UHGV virus genome: UHGV-0130462
From: a virus
Length of the DNA: 38,884 nt
Strand: one strand, 5' to 3'
Shown: piece after piece, positions 29,571 to 38,231 of the stretch
How positions within the stretch are numbered: position 1 is the first letter of the stretch
How the letters are laid out: every line of letters starts with the position of its first letter
Notes under the pieces: generated by a model
What the model was told of the DNA's origin: nothing
The model's input: the letters and a program-made list of their open reading frames with translations, nothing else
Database searches by the model: none
Made by a program: the position numbers and the translations under genes

Positions 29571-29850
29571 TAGATGCCTCCTCCCCTATCAGTGGCTCAA
29601 ATGAAACCAACTCAAATGTAATTTCACGATGGTAATCGTAATAATCATTAGTTGGTTTTAGCGTATAGACCCCCTCACCCTGAAAGTAATCTTCTCCGGT
29701 CAAAACCATTGATATTTCTTCTTGAAACTCTCGAATGTCAGTTGCGTCAAAATCACCATGGCAACCCTTTAAATAGACCTCGTTTTCGTCATCAACAGCG
29801 TGATGAATTACAACAATAGTTCCAAATGGGATTTCCTTTTGCTTGTTCAT
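29557..29850 (-). CDS. hypothetical protein
   Basis: ORF track. Confidence 0.4.
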   Translation of the reverse strand: MNKQKEIPFGTIVVIHHAVDDENEVYLKGCHGDFDATDIREFQEEISMVLTGEDYFQGEGVYTLKPTNDYYDYHREITFELVSFEPLIGEEASNAGN

Positions 29851-29869
29851 CTAAAAATCCTCTTGCGTG

Positions 29870-31240
29870 TTAAACGTTGGCACCTTGGAATCGCCGTTGT
29901 TGTGGTCTGCTACTTTGTTGACAGATGCTAGATGCTTGAGCCTGATCGGTGTCAAGAAAATGACCGTTTTTAAATAATTGATAGACAGTACCCAGTTTCC
30001 CAAATCGGTTTTTTGTCACAATTATTTCTGCGTAAGCTGCTGCGGGGGAGTTCTCGTTATAGACTGCATCGCGGTAAAGCATGATGATGCTATCTGCATC
30101 TTGCTCTACGCTTCCTGAGTCTCTTAAATCCGCATTGGTAGGTCGTTTGTTAGGTCTCTTTTCAACATCACGAGATAACTGGCTTAGTGAAATAACAGGC
30201 GTTCTGATGTTTTTAGCCAACCCTTTCAGCGTTGCTGAAATATGAGCAATAGCCAAATCGTTACGCTCTGCGCGAGGTTTCTCAATCAACCCTAAGTAAT
30301 CAACCATGATTAACGATAATTCAGGGTGACGTTTCTTGTGTCGTGTTGAAATTGCAGTGATTTGTTCAACGGTTAACTTACTGGCATCGACAACCCAAAC
30401 ATTCAGTCCAAGTAAATTACCTGCCCCCATTGATACCCTGCCCCAATCTTCGTCACTCATACGAGATGGGTTTCTCAATGCGCTAACAGATAGATTTGCG
30501 GATCCTGCAATCTGACGCTCTACGATTTGCTGGGAGTCCATTTCCATGGAGAAAATTAAAACTCCTTTTTTGGTGTCAGATCCGATAACATTTTGAGAGG
30601 CAACACCTTCTGTAATTTTCAGCGCGATTTCTGTTTTACCCATTCCTGGTCGAGCGGCAATGATGACCAGGTCAACAGGATTGATACCTCCCATAATTTC
30701 ATCTAATTCGCGGATCCCCGTTTTTAACGTGTCCGACTCCTCGCCTTTGTTAACACGCTCTTGTAAAACTTCCGTGTAATCTTCGATTAACGATGACACA
30801 TGGACTGGTGCGATATCACCTTTCGAAGAATGCATATCAGATGCCTGAGCAAGAAAACTTTCCATTGCCTCACTGGCTTGCTCAATAGTTCCGTTCTCAA
30901 TCACACCGCGCACAGAATCCATTAACTGGATCATAGCTCTACGGTTATGATTATCGGTCACCATCTTGGCATAGCCTTTCAGGTTGGCTGCGCTAGGGCA
31001 ATCCTTGGCTGTTTGAATGATGTTTGCTAGGTGTTCACTTCCCATTCCTTCAGCAACCATCATCATATCGATGACACCGCGAGACTTGGCTTGTTTTTGA
31101 ATAACTTGATAGGCTTCTCGATAGAACCTAACTGAAAATGATTCAGGCTCTAAAGTGGCCAAAACATCCGAGGCATCAGGTGTTAACCCTGAAATTAACA
31201 AACCGCCAATAACACTTGCTTCAAATTCCGTATTGATCAC
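29870..31240 (-). CDS. replicative DNA helicase (DnaB-like; P22 gp12 position)
   Basis: Walker [10 protein letters not shown] and DnaB C-terminal domain motifs; follows the O-like initiator. Confidence 0.9.
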
Positions 31241-33121: not shown

Positions 33122-33141
33122 CTTTGTGTTCGGAGGTTCGC

Positions 33142-33852
33142 ATGGAACTTAGAGATCGAATTAATTACTTGCTAAAGGCTGAAAATCTAAAGCAAAAGGA
33201 CTTAGCTGAGAAACTAAATGCCAGTGCGCAAACAGTTAATAACTGGCTAAAAAGAAACTCAATTAGCAGGGAAGCAGCGCAACAGATTAGTGATATTTTT
33301 GGTTATTCACTTGACTGGTTACTGATTGGCAAAGGTGAGCCGAAAATAAAAAATATTGGACAATCAGAAATACCTGATGAAAACAAATTTATTCCTCTTC
33401 GAGTTTGGGATAGTCTAACACCTCTTGAGGCAGATGAAGTTGAGGTTCCTTTTTTGAAGGATATAGAATTTGCTTGTGGTGATGGATCGTTTACAGACAC
33501 TGATTACAACGGATTTAAACTAAGGTTTTCTAAAGCAACAATGCGGAGGATCGGAGCCAACAGTGACGGAGAAGGTGTGATTTGCTTCCCAGCCAGAGGG
33601 GATAGCATGGAGCCTGTTATATTTAATGGTACTACTGTTGCTGTAAACACTAGAGATAAGAAAATTGTTGATGGTAAAATTTATGCGATAAATCAAGGTG
33701 GGCTAAAAAGAGTGAAAATGCTTCATCAAACCACGCCTAAAACATTAACAATTCGTAGCTTCAATAAAATTGACTACCCAGACGAAGAAGTGCCAATAGA
33801 GGCAATAGAGATCATCGGTAGAGTTTTCTGGTGGTCTGTATTAGACGTCTAA
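33142..33852 (+). CDS. cI: CI-type prophage repressor (HTH plus LexA-like S24 autopeptidase domain)
   Basis: N-terminal HTH (LKQKDLAEKLNASAQTVNNWL) and C-terminal GDSMEP ... LKRVK catalytic Ser/Lys; GGAGG 6 nt upstream of ATG 33142. Confidence 0.9.
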   Translation: MELRDRINYLLKAENLKQKDLAEKLNASAQTVNNWLKRNSISREAAQQISDIFGYSLDWLLIGKGEPKIKNIGQSEIPDENKFIPLRVWDSLTPLEADEVEVPFLKDIEFACGDGSFTDTDYNGFKLRFSKATMRRIGANSDGEGVICFPARGDSMEPVIFNGTTVAVNTRDKKIVDGKIYAINQGGLKRVKMLHQTTPKTLTIRSFNKIDYPDEEVPIEAIEIIGRVFWWSVLDV

Positions 33853-33868
33853 TCAGCACTAACAAATG

Positions 33869-33897
33869 AAGCCACTTAACAAAAGTGGCTTTTTTTA
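33869..33897 (+). terminator. rho-independent terminator after cI
   Basis: AAGCCACUU-AACAA-AAGUGGCUU perfect 9-bp stem followed by U6. Confidence 0.65.
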
Positions 33898-33954
33898 TGC
33901 TCAAAATACACCTCTCGTATATCAAATGTTTATTTTTACAAAATAAATCCCTTT

Positions 33955-34032
33955 TAAAATCAACACAAAATCAACTTTTTCAGAAAATAAATCAACATAG
34001 AGTTGACTTTAAAATCAACATAATGTTTAATT
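33955..34032 (+). promoter_or_regulatory. OL operators and pL promoter
   Basis: Repeated AAATCAAC motifs including dyads TCAAC-ATAGA-GTTGA and ATCAACATAATGTT; TTGACT (34003-34008), 17-nt spacer, TTTAAT (34026-34031). Confidence 0.55.
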
Positions 34033-34072
34033 AACTCATCGAAGGCAAGGAGCCATAGATAAACAGGATGTT

Positions 34073-34106
34073 CGCTCTTTTACAAATTAACTCCCGCCAT
34101 TGTGGG
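34073..34106 (+). promoter_or_regulatory. nutL: boxA (CGCTCTTTT) plus boxB-like hairpin (CCCGCCAUUGUGGG)
   Basis: About 40 nt downstream of the pL -10; same elements as nutR. Confidence 0.5.
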
Positions 34107-34345
34107 AAAGTTTCAAAACTCCAAGTGAGTATTGGGATGCGGTTACGCTGAACCAGATGCAAGCAAAACCAATGTCAGACGGTGTGAGTCCGTCGAGTAA
34201 TAACAACGCTGTTGATCATTAACTTAGGAAGGTGAACAGCAAATAAAGTGGTGTTATTGCAGAGGATGCAAGCAAGGCTGACAAGACAGTTCGAGACTGA
34301 TAGCCAATGACCGCATCACCAATACTTACTAACCGAGGGTAAATT

Positions 34346-34618
34346 ATGGCTCAAATTACTTACTTACCGCGCACTGGTAAGACAAATTCAAAGATGCGTC
34401 GTTATATCGCTAGAGGAGAATTAATGGCGCGTAAGGCTTTAGAGGAAGCTAATCGCGGTCGCACTACTGAGGAAATTTGGGATTCAATCATTAAACCAGT
34501 TGATGAAACAGATGTGCTAGCAAGTTTGGTGTTAAGTCTTAAATCATCACCAGATGCACGCAAAACATTAAAACTGAAAAAACAGCCGAGCAGTGAGTTC
34601 GGGGTTACGGCGAGATAA
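34346..34618 (+). CDS. N-like antitermination protein (P22 gp24-like)
   Basis: MAQITY...GKTNSKMRRY arginine-rich N-terminus and ...VTAR C-terminus parallel P22 gp24; first gene after pL/nutL. Confidence 0.6.
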   Translation: MAQITYLPRTGKTNSKMRRYIARGELMARKALEEANRGRTTEEIWDSIIKPVDETDVLASLVLSLKSSPDARKTLKLKKQPSSEFGVTAR

Positions 34619-34632
34619 ATAGGAGAAGTAAG

Positions 34633-34950
34633 ATGAAATTTGAAGATTTAACAGAAGCGTCTCAAGAATCGGCTCGTGCGGTTCTATCAGCCATGCTAGT
34701 TGATAGTTATCGACGCAATTTTAAATTAACTCGTGATGATATTTTAGAATTAGGTCATAGAGTTAGAAAGGCATTTGTGACCTTGGAAAGTGAAGAGCCT
34801 AAAGCTGAATTATGTTCTGGTTCAGGTATGTGTAGTGACTTGCATCCTGATGCCTCGTTAAGTGTGGGAGGGCTTGGCATTCAGCAAGGGCATGGAATTG
34901 CTATGAGTGAAAATAACGCAAATCAGTTAAGAAAAAAAGGAATGCTTTAG
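34633..34950 (+). CDS. hypothetical early-left protein
   Basis: ORF track. Confidence 0.5.
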   Translation: MKFEDLTEASQESARAVLSAMLVDSYRRNFKLTRDDILELGHRVRKAFVTLESEEPKAELCSGSGMCSDLHPDASLSVGGLGIQQGHGIAMSENNANQLRKKGML

Positions 34951-34961
34951 TTAACTAAAAT

Positions 34962-35573
34962 TCATTTATTAAAATATCCAGTGAATTGCCTAACGCATTC
35001 TGAGTAATAATCGGGATTAATTATAAACTCATTGGTATGTCTCATACTCAAATGCTTTGACGAATCATGGAGAATGTCTTTATCCAACAGTGAGTTAATA
35101 ACAGGGTCATTTCTTTTCCCGCCTAGAAATTCCTTTCCAGTGTCAATGAACATGGCTAGGTAATCCTTTTCATCCTCAGAAAGGCTTGAAATAACAAATG
35201 ATATTTTGTGCTGATTATTACGCTTTATTGATTTTAACTTTACGGAATTAATTATACCAAAAGTTAATAAATATATTCTTTTTGTTATATCTGAAAGAAA
35301 GAAGCTAACAGGAATAATAAAAAGAACAGCATTGATATTATTTACCGAGCCAAAAATTGGCTTTGCGTTAAGAAAATCAAAGAATGATTCAGGTAAAAAT
35401 AACCACAAACTGACCAGATATAGCAACCACACCATAGTAAACCTCAGTGAAATTTGGTTTTTCAAATAGGCAATCACTGCCTCAATCCAATTCGGCATGG
35501 TTGATAATCTCTTATTCTGTAGGGGTAAGTGGATTATAGCCGATTTCTCGATGTAGGGGTACACGAGAACCAC
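34962..35573 (-). CDS. AT-rich membrane protein (two N-terminal TM helices plus soluble C-terminal domain), transcribed against the pL operon; superinfection-exclusion or abortive-infection candidate
   Basis: ORF track; hydrophobic segments FTMVWLLYLVSLWLFL and INAVLFIIPVSFFL; convergent with the upstream plus-strand gene, divergent from the next; strongly AT-rich. An alternative GTG start at 35564 has a GAGGTG site upstream. Confidence 0.6.
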   Translation of the reverse strand: MVLVYPYIEKSAIIHLPLQNKRLSTMPNWIEAVIAYLKNQISLRFTMVWLLYLVSLWLFLPESFFDFLNAKPIFGSVNNINAVLFIIPVSFFLSDITKRIYLLTFGIINSVKLKSIKRNNQHKISFVISSLSEDEKDYLAMFIDTGKEFLGGKRNDPVINSLLDKDILHDSSKHLSMRHTNEFIINPDYYSECVRQFTGYFNK

Positions 35574-35664
35574 CTCGCCTGACGTGGCTAAAAGCAGGCG
35601 CAGTTAACTAATTACAGTCCATTCTGTGGGCTGTGGTGAGTTGATTAATAGATAGGAGATAGAT

Positions 35665-35853
35665 ATGGATATTACGATTTTGTGCTCATCTGCTGATTGC
35701 AGTTCAGGGGTTGGAATAATGGAGGTAAAGGTCATCGATGTGGCTGATATTTCAATTCCAGAAGAATACCAAAATGAAGTGCTCAGAACCGCTATTAGTG
35801 AAGAAAATATAATTAAATACCTTAAAAGTCAGGGTTATTTAGTTACTTGTTAA
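35665..35853 (+). CDS. hypothetical small protein
   Basis: ORF track; AGGAG upstream. Confidence 0.4.
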   Translation: MDITILCSSADCSSGVGIMEVKVIDVADISIPEEYQNEVLRTAISEENIIKYLKSQGYLVTC

Positions 35854-35866
35854 TAACGGAGGGAGT

Positions 35867-36106
35867 ATGACAGATAAAACAGGTGGAGCGGCTTTTCCTG
35901 CGAGCGGGCATCCAAATATGCAATTTGTAGCTCAGGAAGGTGTGAATATGCGTGATTATCTAGCTGCTAAGGCTATGCAGGGCGATTTAGCTTCACAAAG
36001 CGCAGAACTCGGTCATTTTCCAAATGATGTAGATGATGAATGCTTAATAAAACGCGCTAAATTCTACTACCGCATGGCAGATGCAATGTTAAAAGCTAGG
36101 GGGTGA
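35867..36106 (+). CDS. hypothetical early-left protein
   Basis: ORF track; GGAGG upstream. Confidence 0.5.
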   Translation: MTDKTGGAAFPASGHPNMQFVAQEGVNMRDYLAAKAMQGDLASQSAELGHFPNDVDDECLIKRAKFYYRMADAMLKARG

Positions 36107-36107
36107 T

Positions 36108-36251
36108 ATGAACGAAAAATATAACGGAGGAGTTAAGCCTGATAATACAAAAGAAGCTAAAAAGCTCAATCGTGATTATCAAGTTAAACGCCTAATTGCT
36201 AAAGGCCACACAAAGAAGTTTGCCCGCCAACAAGTTAAACGCATTAAATAG
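36108..36251 (+). CDS. hypothetical small basic protein (47 aa)
   Basis: ATG 2 nt after the previous stop; K/R-rich; below the ORF-track cutoff. Confidence 0.35.
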   Translation: MNEKYNGGVKPDNTKEAKKLNRDYQVKRLIAKGHTKKFARQQVKRIK

Positions 36252-36325
36252 CAAGCAGTAACCCATCACTTAATCATTCATATCGCTATTAATAGTGATG
36301 AATACGCACATAAGGGATATAGGAA

Positions 36326-37267
36326 ATGGCAAATGAATTAGTCGTAATTGAACAAGCTACGGCGCTAGATTTGTTTACGGCACCAGAAAAAGTAAATCAG
36401 ATGCTAGAGCACATTAAATCTCTTGCAGAAGAAGAGCGTAAAGAACTCGACAGTGATTTCTCAGTAGCTAAAAACCGAAAGGCTTTTGCATCTCTGGCGT
36501 ACAAAGTTGCTCAAACAAAAATGTATATCGACAAGGAAGGTAAAGCGGTTGTCGATAAGTTAAAAGAGCTACCCAAAAAAGTTGATGCTAATCGCAAGAT
36601 ATTTCGTGATGAACTAGATGCATTAAGCACAGATATTCGCAAGCCACTAACAGAGTGGGAAGCACAAGAAAAAGCTCGCGAAGAAGCTGAGGCGCTTAAG
36701 AAGCAAATCGAAGTTGATCACGAAGAAGCTCTGCAAATGAACGAGTTGTTTGATTTGCGCAAAGCCGAAGAGGAACGCAAACGCATTGCTCGTGAAGAAG
36801 AAATGAAGCGACAAGCTGCGGAACAGGCAAGACTTGAAGCTGAGCGCAAAGCACAGCAAGAAATTGAAGCAGCAGCACGGCGCGAACGTGAAGCAAAAGA
36901 AGCTGCCGAACGAGCAGAGCGCGAGAAGCAGGAAGCTATTCAACGTGCAGAGCAAGCGGCAAAAGAAGCCAAGGAAAAGGCAGAACGTGATGCTAAAGAA
37001 GCTCAGGAACGAGCAGAGCGCGAGAAGCAATTAGCTATCGAAGCTGAACGCAAGAAAGTACAGGAAGCAAAACAAGCGCGATTAGCAGAAGAAGAACGTA
37101 AGCGCCAGGAAGAAGCTAAACGTCAGGCTGATAAGGAGCATCGTCGCAAGTATAACCAAGAAACTTTACAGGCATTAGTAAGTAACGGATTTGATGAAAA
37201 ATTAGCGACTGAATTTATTAAGTTAGTTGCTAGTAATAAAATCCCCCACATGACAATGAACTACTAA
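36326..37267 (+). CDS. protein with a long E/R/K/A-rich charged helical region (coiled-coil or single alpha-helix) after a roughly 110-aa N-terminal domain
   Basis: ORF track; low-complexity ...REEAEALKKQ...AERAEREKQ... repeats; located just upstream of the Sak4-like ATPase. Confidence 0.6.
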   Translation: MANELVVIEQATALDLFTAPEKVNQMLEHIKSLAEEERKELDSDFSVAKNRKAFASLAYKVAQTKMYIDKEGKAVVDKLKELPKKVDANRKIFRDELDALSTDIRKPLTEWEAQEKAREEAEALKKQIEVDHEEALQMNELFDLRKAEEERKRIAREEEMKRQAAEQARLEAERKAQQEIEAAARREREAKEAAERAEREKQEAIQRAEQAAKEAKEKAERDAKEAQERAEREKQLAIEAERKKVQEAKQARLAEEERKRQEEAKRQADKEHRRKYNQETLQALVSNGFDEKLATEFIKLVASNKIPHMTMNY

Positions 37268-37322
37268 TACCCACCGCACCAACACCAGATAACCACCCTA
37301 TCGCTCACCTAGCGAGGTAACA

Positions 37323-37499
37323 ATGAAAACTAACTATTACAGCGCTATGCGTGATTGCATGGCGGTGCGTATCACTACGCCTTTTTTACAACTCGCACGT
37401 CAAGCGGCAAGGATAGCCGTCTCAACTAATAACAAGGATGTCTGGCGGTTGGCGAGTCAACTACAGAAGATGGCTTACGGGAGGAAAGTATGTCACTGA
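37323..37499 (+). CDS. hypothetical small protein
   Basis: ATG 37323 after the previous stop; overlaps the next ORF by a few nt; below the ORF-track cutoff. Confidence 0.3.
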   Translation: MKTNYYSAMRDCMAVRITTPFLQLARQAARIAVSTNNKDVWRLASQLQKMAYGRKVCH

Positions 37500-37765
37500 C
37501 TATACGTTACACCTATGCAGATATGACCAGTAGAAACCGAAATAACGGCACGGAAATAGCCTTTCAGAATCTTAACGATGTCCGCATTGAAACAGAATCA
37601 TTCAGGGAACTTACTCAATATTACCAACCTGAGCCATCAGAAGTCGTTGATTACATCATTAATCAGTATGACGCAAAGTCACTCGCAGCAGCTATTCATC
37701 TCTCAGGACGAGGGGAAGTAGTCGCAAAGATACTCAATGAGTTGTATTTCAGGAGGGTTGCGTGA
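37490..37765 (+). CDS. hypothetical protein
   Basis: ORF track. Confidence 0.45.
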   Translation: MSLTIRYTYADMTSRNRNNGTEIAFQNLNDVRIETESFRELTQYYQPEPSEVVDYIINQYDAKSLAAAIHLSGRGEVVAKILNELYFRRVA

Positions 37766-37910
37766 CAAATCATCAACAATGGTTGGAAGAATTACGCAGG
37801 AAGCGTAAAGAATCGCAGGAACGCGAACACGATGAATTTATGTATCAAACGGAAGTGTTAGGACGACAAGGATTGTCTATGCCTCTCAAGGACTTTTCAG
37901 GAGATTTTCA

Positions 37911-38231
37911 ATGAACGTTTCTAACTCATACCCTACCGATAAATACCCCCAATTAACATCACCGTCATTAGCAAAAAACAGAGAGGAAGCTCTGGCTCAA
38001 GCTATTGCAATGATTGAGGGATGTTTGCCAAATACGAGTGCGCCAGACAGGGAAAAACGATTAGCAATGGAACTGCTACACATGAACTTGGACGCATCGA
38101 AAAATCACCCTCCTCTACCTGCTCATATTCAGGCATTACGTGATGCGGAAAGGAATTCTGCACCGAGTAATAAGTTTGAAGTCGATTACTACGGAAGCGA
38201 TCGACGTCAAGGTCAATACTTAGGAGATTAG
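37911..38231 (+). CDS. hypothetical protein
   Basis: ORF track. Confidence 0.5.
   Translation: MNVSNSYPTDKYPQLTSPSLAKNREEALAQAIAMIEGCLPNTSAPDREKRLAMELLHMNLDASKNHPPLPAHIQALRDAERNSAPSNKFEVDYYGSDRRQGQYLGD

Follow-up and report, generated by a model that had tools for sequence, protein, structure and literature searches.

What kind of gene would a temperate phage keep running against its own early-left operon? The question is raised by a gene in the UHGV virus genome UHGV-0130462, of which the window, i.e. the whole stretch of DNA analysed here, comprises 38,884 nucleotides (nt). The gene lies on the minus strand among plus-strand genes (34346-38231) downstream of a pL-like promoter, and an initial sequence-only reading had taken it for an exclusion or abortive-infection gene of the sieB/rex type, possibly undescribed, with a sequence and orientation that were not recognised. 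The observation holds apart from the start codon, and the functional guess was essentially right in the light of the SieB family evidence; the idea of an unrecognised gene was not. The locus very probably serves superinfection exclusion as the sieB locus in a temperate phage or prophage, P22-like and from Proteus/Providencia (Morganellaceae), and sieB is an already known and annotated gene, a textbook family in a textbook arrangement and not a new kind of defence.

Membership in the SieB family can be observed directly. The protein of the minus-strand open reading frame (ORF) matches the Pfam family PF14163 (SieB) with 49.6 bits against a gathering cut-off of 26 (E 4e-13), and it also matches PHROG 1301 and PHROG 6399, both of which are SieB. 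A tblastn search against phage records retrieved the annotated sieB genes of P22-like Salmonella phages and of a Hafnia phage over 97-98% of the length at ~26% identity, and an exact-sequence look-up showed that the identical protein of 178 amino acids (aa) has the NCBI name 'MULTISPECIES: super-infection exclusion protein B [Morganellaceae]'. This protein occurs on 93 contigs, 4-Mb Proteus mirabilis chromosomes among them, its cluster has 34 members, and a relative from Providencia rettgeri likewise carries the SieB name. The gene must be regarded as real because the Pfam match lies above the cut-off, the family counts 163 clusters in the profile search, and AlphaFold2 (AF2) run with a 70-sequence family alignment gives a model with a mean predicted local distance difference test score (pLDDT) of 93.7. 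RexB, the other candidate among prophage membrane proteins, is not indicated, with no Pfam match besides SieB at E <= 0.1, no PADLOC model and no rexA-like neighbour.

The start of the gene has to be corrected. The ORF listing gives 203 codons from a GTG (34962..35573, minus strand), and the gene that had been read from it is real while its start is wrong. M26 of this ORF is invariant and coincides in the protein alignment with the annotated SieB starts of P22, lambda and Providencia, and NCBI uses the 178-aa form; therefore, the true start is the ATG at 35498, which is preceded by a weak AAGAG Shine-Dalgarno (SD) sequence at 35513-35509. The 25 codons upstream of this ATG appear to be the conserved sieB promoter and 5' untranslated region (5'UTR), and as such non-coding. 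The GTG starts at 35573 (203 aa) and 35564 (200 aa) were rejected, as both lie upstream of the transcription start site (TSS) deduced by homology and are probably an artefact of mechanical ORF calling. The frame stays open across promoter and 5'UTR (35499-35573), which leads gene callers to 200-aa and 203-aa products, and the P22 sieB ORF is likewise open upstream of its start. The corrected start shows that these longer gene calls run through the promoter.

The layout of the locus is equally a matter of direct observation. As had been stated from the sequence, sieB is the only minus-strand gene in the operon, all other minus-strand ORFs in the pL span being shadows within plus-strand genes, and the convergent gap to the upstream gene is exactly 11 bp (34951-34961); a consensus terminator scan found no terminator between these two genes. 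The divergent gap to the gene at 35665, given as 90 bp, is 91 bp when counted from the mechanical GTG and 166 bp when counted from the true ATG. The orientation that had seemed unfamiliar is the canonical one, antisense and tail to tail, for both lambda and P22. In the P22 record, sieB (29758-30336, plus strand) runs antisense to pL and converges on gene 24, and lambda sieB (lambdap48, NC_001416 34482-35036, plus strand), also antisense to pL, ends directly against the stop codon of N. The window gene shares with both its early-left location, its antisense orientation to pL and its tail-to-tail position with the N-side gene. This expected place confirms that the window belongs to a lambdoid (P22-like) phage of Morganellaceae whose immunity region is of the standard kind. 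The conspicuous AT-richness is real as well (32.2% GC against 40.5% for the window) and typical of the sieB family, in which the gene is AT-richer than its own locus in lambda (38.6% vs 42.8% GC), P22 (39.2% vs 45.1%), Providencia (28.6% vs 39.4%) and also in the Hafnia phage.

Further evidence comes from the DNA in front of the gene. P22 features (record BK000583), among them an annotated promoter at 29690-29720, an RNA start at 29727 and a nested esc coding sequence from 29830, were transferred to the window through a DNA alignment. This places PsieB at 35563-35533 on the minus strand with its -10 element at 35538-35533, the TSS at 35526, the sieB ATG at 35498 and the esc ATG at 35435. The promoter had been expected in the gap at 35574-35664 and maps inside the originally proposed ORF instead. 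The ~110 bp upstream of the ATG are 74-78% identical to P22, lambda and Hafnia over ~106-110 aligned columns, and the ~85-nt BLAST core of this block reaches 83-86% identity whereas the proteins share only 20-27%. Viral contigs were scanned with an invariant 23-nt core, which gave at least 120 stretches, of which 118 were usable, with 41 unique blocks among the matches listed; across these, the -10 position keeps T-A-n-A-n-T in all lineages. PsieB is accordingly homologous to an annotated P22 promoter and TSS, has a perfect TATAAT, and can be considered a putative promoter active in the lysogen.

The block also contains two direct copies of ACCCCTACA(G/T), invariant across phages of E. coli, Salmonella, Hafnia and Proteus. 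Each copy is flanked by short inverted repeats, and the first lies inside a near-perfect palindrome, TTCTCG-TGTA-CCCC-TACA-(G/T)-CGAGAA. The copies may serve as a binding site for a protein or as an element of an RNA. Short stems flanking the second ACCCCTACAG copy are not claimed, as their positions shift between lineages.

A second P22-like feature is an internal in-frame start at M22, aligned to the esc ATG of P22 and preceded by a GAGG ribosome-binding site (RBS; 35445-35442) with a 6-nt spacer. Methionine occupies this column in 49 of 70 family representatives and lies at most three columns away in 64 of the 70, compared with a background rate of 0.11 in comparable alignment windows, and 62 of the 70 sequences have it in an internal position. 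Among public gene calls, the identical protein also appears in 157-aa forms, and in the profile search the called start of many representatives falls at profile position 22-24. The Esc-type start therefore appears to be a family-wide feature. Its product would be devoid of the N-terminal amphipathic helix and begin at the first transmembrane (TM) helix; translation of Esc and its antagonism towards SieB are to be expected here by analogy with P22.

The third feature is a homologue of the antisense RNA sas, which has been known since 1993 and detected by RNA sequencing (RNA-seq). The 127-nt form of P22 sas was defined by RNA-seq (PMC13397905 Table 2). It occupies 2457-2583 of the P22 locus, where it begins on the opposite strand 4 nt beyond the A of the sieB ATG, and it shares 36 nt with the sieB mRNA, from the TSS up to and including the start codon; in P22, the sieB ATG and the distal hairpin are 105 nt apart, which is the published length of sas. 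The plus strand of the window is identical to the published P22 sas at 96 of 113 positions (85%) between 35496 and 35610, and the 5' part of this segment (35496-35526) is complementary to the sieB 5'UTR, SD sequence and AUG. A fold with three hairpins is predicted for both RNAs, of which hairpins II and III would lie at 35545-35569 and 35577-35599, with modest z-scores of -2.1 to -2.3 for these single-sequence folds; the predicted fold of the sieB 5' mRNA is not significant (z -1.4). The structure of the sas homologue is a predicted one. No convincing sigma-70 match to a sas promoter was seen by eye within the sieB 5' coding region. An Rfam 15 scan of 33800-36400 at E <= 1 returned nothing over the conserved block. 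Homologues of sas occur in at least 144 phage records and at least 120 viral contigs, yet no Rfam 15 family matches them.

The conservation of the promoter, Esc start and sas sequences is an observation, and it bears on the view that the gene is a remnant, decaying or silent, and no longer functional. Such a view could invoke the AT-richness, the orientation antisense to the operon and the weak -35 element, but a remnant would hardly combine an intact ORF, an identical protein on so many contigs and cluster members, a perfect TATAAT and a high-confidence fold with the retention of all three regulatory features, and it is given next to no probability.

The predicted fold gives a first idea of what the protein may look like. 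Two N-terminal TM helices and a soluble domain had been proposed from the sequence, and the hydrophobic segments and the AF2 model agree with this, with an amphipathic helix in front and a stalk and a ~70-aa folded domain of the winged-helix type behind (Table 1). The stalk after TM2 carries five lysine/arginine (K/R) residues and no aspartate/glutamate (D/E), which implies by the positive-inside rule that both termini and the C-terminal domain are cytoplasmic. In its size of 178 aa, its AF2 model and its charge pattern, the protein agrees with what is expected of SieB (~180-195 aa, with a membrane module at the N terminus and a cytoplasmic domain at the C terminus), and the best match among predicted viral structures (BFVD) is the P22 SieB ORF, Q38660. 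The literature search found nothing linking SieB to a winged-helix fold. A membrane-tethered transcription regulator, with DNA-binding gene regulation as its main role, would be another reading of such a domain and is very unlikely: the resemblance to MarR/SarA-type domains is one of fold only, at 5-16% sequence identity, and no family match to MarR-type regulators was found at the sequence level. In contrast to these regulators, the domain is membrane-tethered and net acidic (13 D/E vs 9 K/R), an unusual charge for a domain that binds DNA. Contacts between proteins are another role of winged-helix folds, and the family is defined genetically by exclusion in P22.

Comparison between relatives suggests that the protein is built from two parts. 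The protein P0003 of Providencia rettgeri shares 26% identity with the window protein over residues 1-100 and 92% over residues 101-178, with a first half that resembles the N-terminal half of lambda SieB at 44%, while P0004 shows the reverse pattern (67% / 19%). The breakpoint at about residue 100/101 falls at the junction of stalk and winged-helix domain in the AF2 model. This exchange of halves speaks for two separable modules, and from fold and domain shuffling we infer a membrane effector joined to a cytoplasmic specificity or sensor domain. To our knowledge, SieB has lacked a known mechanism since the 1970s; its architecture as predicted here and the exchanged halves suggest a sensor/effector model that can be tested.

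For P22, SieB is described as stopping macromolecular synthesis midway in the lytic cycle of heterologous P22-like phages (PMC10883804), and a switch is formed by Esc, which inhibits SieB, and sas, which blocks the translation of SieB but not that of Esc (PMC10883804, PMC12197685). As PsieB, the Esc start and sas are all present at the sequence level, a circuit of the P22 type is the best-supported model for the window. In the lysogen, pL would be repressed and sieB transcribed antisense to it from its own constitutive promoter, PsieB, giving an mRNA from which both full-length SieB (178 aa) and, from the internal in-frame start, Esc (157 aa) would be made. SieB would reside in the inner membrane with both ends in the cytoplasm, its two TM helices following an amphipathic helix and leading via a long cytoplasmic stalk to the winged-helix domain. 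Upon infection by a heterologous lambdoid phage, SieB would by analogy with P22 abort the lytic cycle midway by halting macromolecular synthesis, with the winged-helix domain possibly sensing a phage product and the membrane module, which would need the N-terminal helix, acting as the effector. When the resident phage enters lytic growth, transcription in the pL direction would yield sas, which would pair with the sieB 5'UTR, SD sequence and AUG and block translation of SieB. The Esc start at 35435 lies ~60 nt beyond the sas duplex (35496-35526) and would stay free, so that Esc could neutralise SieB that is already present. In this scheme, the expression of the gene, the phenotype, the trigger, the chemistry of the effector and the P22-like working of sas and Esc are what we infer.

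A SieB-family protein could also act at the envelope and block DNA entry, as do P22 SieA or T4 Imm, without any abortive infection. The inner-membrane location, the strong divergence from P22 SieB and the fact that the SieB mechanism is not understood would allow for this. It is nevertheless unlikely, as the positive-inside rule places the bulk of the protein, stalk and winged-helix domain, in the cytoplasm, and the loop on the periplasmic side has only ~20 aa. Furthermore, keeping an Esc-type antidote start and sas makes sense only if SieB harms the phage's own lytic growth after entry, and P22 SieB itself acts midway through the lytic cycle (PMC10883804).

Several points weigh against the P22-type circuit and the assignment to sieB on which it builds. 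A PADLOC-DB v2 scan of the protein found 0 defence families at E <= 1 and an NCBIfam scan gave no match; of the families that the sequence-only reading had proposed for profile comparison, SieB (PF14163) was matched and RexB was not. The consensus promoter scan missed PsieB, because its -35 element is weak. In the covariation test on a consensus fold of 15 diverse sas copies, all 19 pairs were invariant with zero covariation support, hairpin II being fixed by the exact-core search pattern with which the copies were collected, and conservation of the block could reflect the opposite-strand promoter as much as an RNA. With 20-27% identity to both experimentally studied SieB proteins, the target range and even the mode of action could differ. 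For this lineage the exclusion phenotype is a presumed one, and the proposed split into sensor and effector concerns a protein whose molecular mechanism is not known even for P22. The missing PADLOC and NCBIfam matches together with the low identity to P22 and lambda SieB would also suit an undescribed, lysogen-expressed defence factor unrelated to known families. This idea is hardly credible, as it is refuted by the Pfam score above the gathering cut-off, the full-length tblastn match to P22 sieB and the identical protein annotated as SieB, and by the conserved PsieB, sas and esc features.

The P22 sieB gene was reportedly described by Susskind et al. in 1974, and the sieB, esc and sas elements are said to have been treated by Ranade & Poteete in 1993. 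The window locus and that of P22 belong to the same Pfam family and share protein size, two N-terminal TM segments, an antisense position to pL that is convergent with the N-side neighbour, a homologous promoter and TSS region, an internal Esc-type methionine at the start of TM1, and a sas sequence that is 85% identical over 113 nt. They differ in the protein sequence (~20-26% identity), in the -10 element (TAAACT in P22, the consensus TATAAT in the window), in the strong GAGG RBS of the window Esc start, in the presence of two genes instead of one between pL and sieB, and in the Morganellaceae host. Lambda sieB resembles the window gene in its orientation to pL, a 0-bp tail-to-tail junction with N, the same upstream block and a GC content below that of its surroundings, while the protein shows ~21% identity and a different N-terminal membrane module; P0003 of Providencia rettgeri joins a lambda-like N-terminal half to a C-terminal half of the window type. 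The likeness to lambda RexB/RexAB is one of principle: a prophage-expressed inner-membrane protein near the immunity region aborts superinfecting phages, and the activity is modulated by membrane component that is supplied internally or in addition. There is no sequence relationship between RexB and the window SieB (no Pfam or PADLOC match), and RexB, a protein with four TM helices, depends on RexA as its sensor and is transcribed together with cI, whereas SieB combines membrane module and cytoplasmic domain in a single polypeptide.

The conserved upstream block is not restricted to one gene. Behind it lie at least five deeply divergent SieB lineages and, in at least 18 loci among the matches listed (including L013 4295-4900, L016 and L008), an unrelated, non-membrane, Cys-rich protein of 164 aa (phrog_1244, function unknown). 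The phrog_1244 loci keep the full PsieB/sas block with both ACCCCTACAG copies and hairpins II and III, and in the lambda-like phage of L013 the phrog_1244 protein is tail to tail with lambda N in the exact sieB slot. In three phages, no more than the distal ~35 bp of the block (TGTGCCTGCTTTTARCCACRTCAGGCGAGGTGG; hairpin III and GAGGTGG) is retained in front of other pL-antisense cargo, which is phrog_8894 in MS2 LVA and phiES15 (unannotated in the latter) and phrog_5286 in SfIV. In MS2 LVA, which is closely related to the window, a 93-aa gene takes the place of sieB. Each of the three loci has its own short direct repeat between hairpin and RBS. The pL-antisense slot is therefore a hot spot of cargo exchange with a shared regulatory scaffold.

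Two separate proposals can be made on this basis: SieB as a modular winged-helix sensor tethered to the membrane, in which recombination exchanges the sensor domain and thereby retargets exclusion, and the ~110-bp PsieB/sas block as a portable, antisense-RNA-gated expression cassette that stays in the same pL-antisense slot. Taken jointly they are tentative and rather doubtful, and the winged-helix architecture, the module shuffling and the sas scaffold with other cargo should be seen as modest leads and not as established findings. If true, the cassette predicts that the phrog_1244, phrog_8894 and phrog_5286 proteins are prophage exclusion or abortive-infection toxins which are switched off by pL-driven antisense RNA during the lytic growth of their own phage. 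The sas scaffold, conserved from E. coli to Proteus phages, present in front of unrelated cargo genes and without an Rfam family, is a handle for finding other antisense-gated prophage morons.

Table 1. Positions of the features discussed, in window coordinates unless residues of the 178-aa protein or another locus are named
Feature	Position	Strand	Basis and remarks
sieB coding sequence	34962..35498	-	178 aa plus TGA stop at 34962-34964; start ATG 35498
Esc-type nested in-frame product, 157 aa	34962..35435	-	internal ATG 35435 = M22, aligned to P22 esc ATG; putative translation
PsieB promoter	35533..35563	-	homology to annotated P22 promoter; -10 TATAAT 35538-35533; poor -35; putative TSS 35526
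sas homologue	35496..35610	+ (pL-sense)	96/113 identical to published P22 sas
Two direct copies of ACCCCTACA(G/T)	35560-35551 (over -35 region); 35526-35517 (at TSS)	-	sequence reading; conserved in 41 unique blocks
Amphipathic helix	residues 3-15		AF2
TM1	residues 18-34 (hydrophobic segment ~18-35)		AF2, hydrophobicity
Short loop	residues 35-54		AF2
Single long helix, TM2 and stalk	residues 55-104 (hydrophobic ~55-75)		AF2, hydrophobicity
Compact alpha/beta winged-helix domain	residues 108-172		AF2
cI-type repressor gene	33124-33852		upstream of pL-like promoter; Peptidase_S24 and Phage_CI_repr matches
Four AAATCAAC operator-like repeats	33957-34019		pL-like promoter lies among them; sequence reading
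pL-like promoter, TTGACT / 17 nt / TTTAAT	34003..34031	+	sequence reading; putative promoter function
First pL gene, 90 aa, possible N-type antiterminator	34346..34618	+	weak: resemblance to P22 gp24 confined to the arginine-rich N-terminal stretch
Upstream pL-operon gene, 105 aa, phrog_26625, function unknown	34633..34950	+	convergent with sieB; ORF listing, PHROG
Plus-strand ORFs around sieB	34346-34618, 34633-34950, 35665-35853, 35867-36106, 36108-36251, 36326-37267, onward to 38231	+	ORF listing
Loci with distal block only	L005 2515-2899 (MZ614453); L007 2501-2860 (phiES15); L006 2501-3037 (SfIV)

The neighbourhood of sieB fits a phage of this type, and the window is a mosaic P22-like Proteus/Providencia phage. 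The first pL gene is possibly an N protein: BLASTP against P22 gp24 gives E 0.005 over 20 aa, and neither Hafnia N nor a Pfam or NCBIfam family was matched. A strong intrinsic-terminator hairpin (33871-33896, GCCACTT-AACAA-AAGTGGC followed by a T-run) lies directly after the cI-type repressor gene, and its sub-threshold Rfam matches to STnc250 and trpB are probably mere terminator resemblance. Further downstream, the gene at 36326-37267 encodes a 313-aa protein (phrog_1376, function unknown) with a long, highly charged, E/K/A/R-rich middle part that resembles a coiled coil; it has several long shadow ORFs on the opposite strand and coincides with a local peak in GC content and AT-skew.
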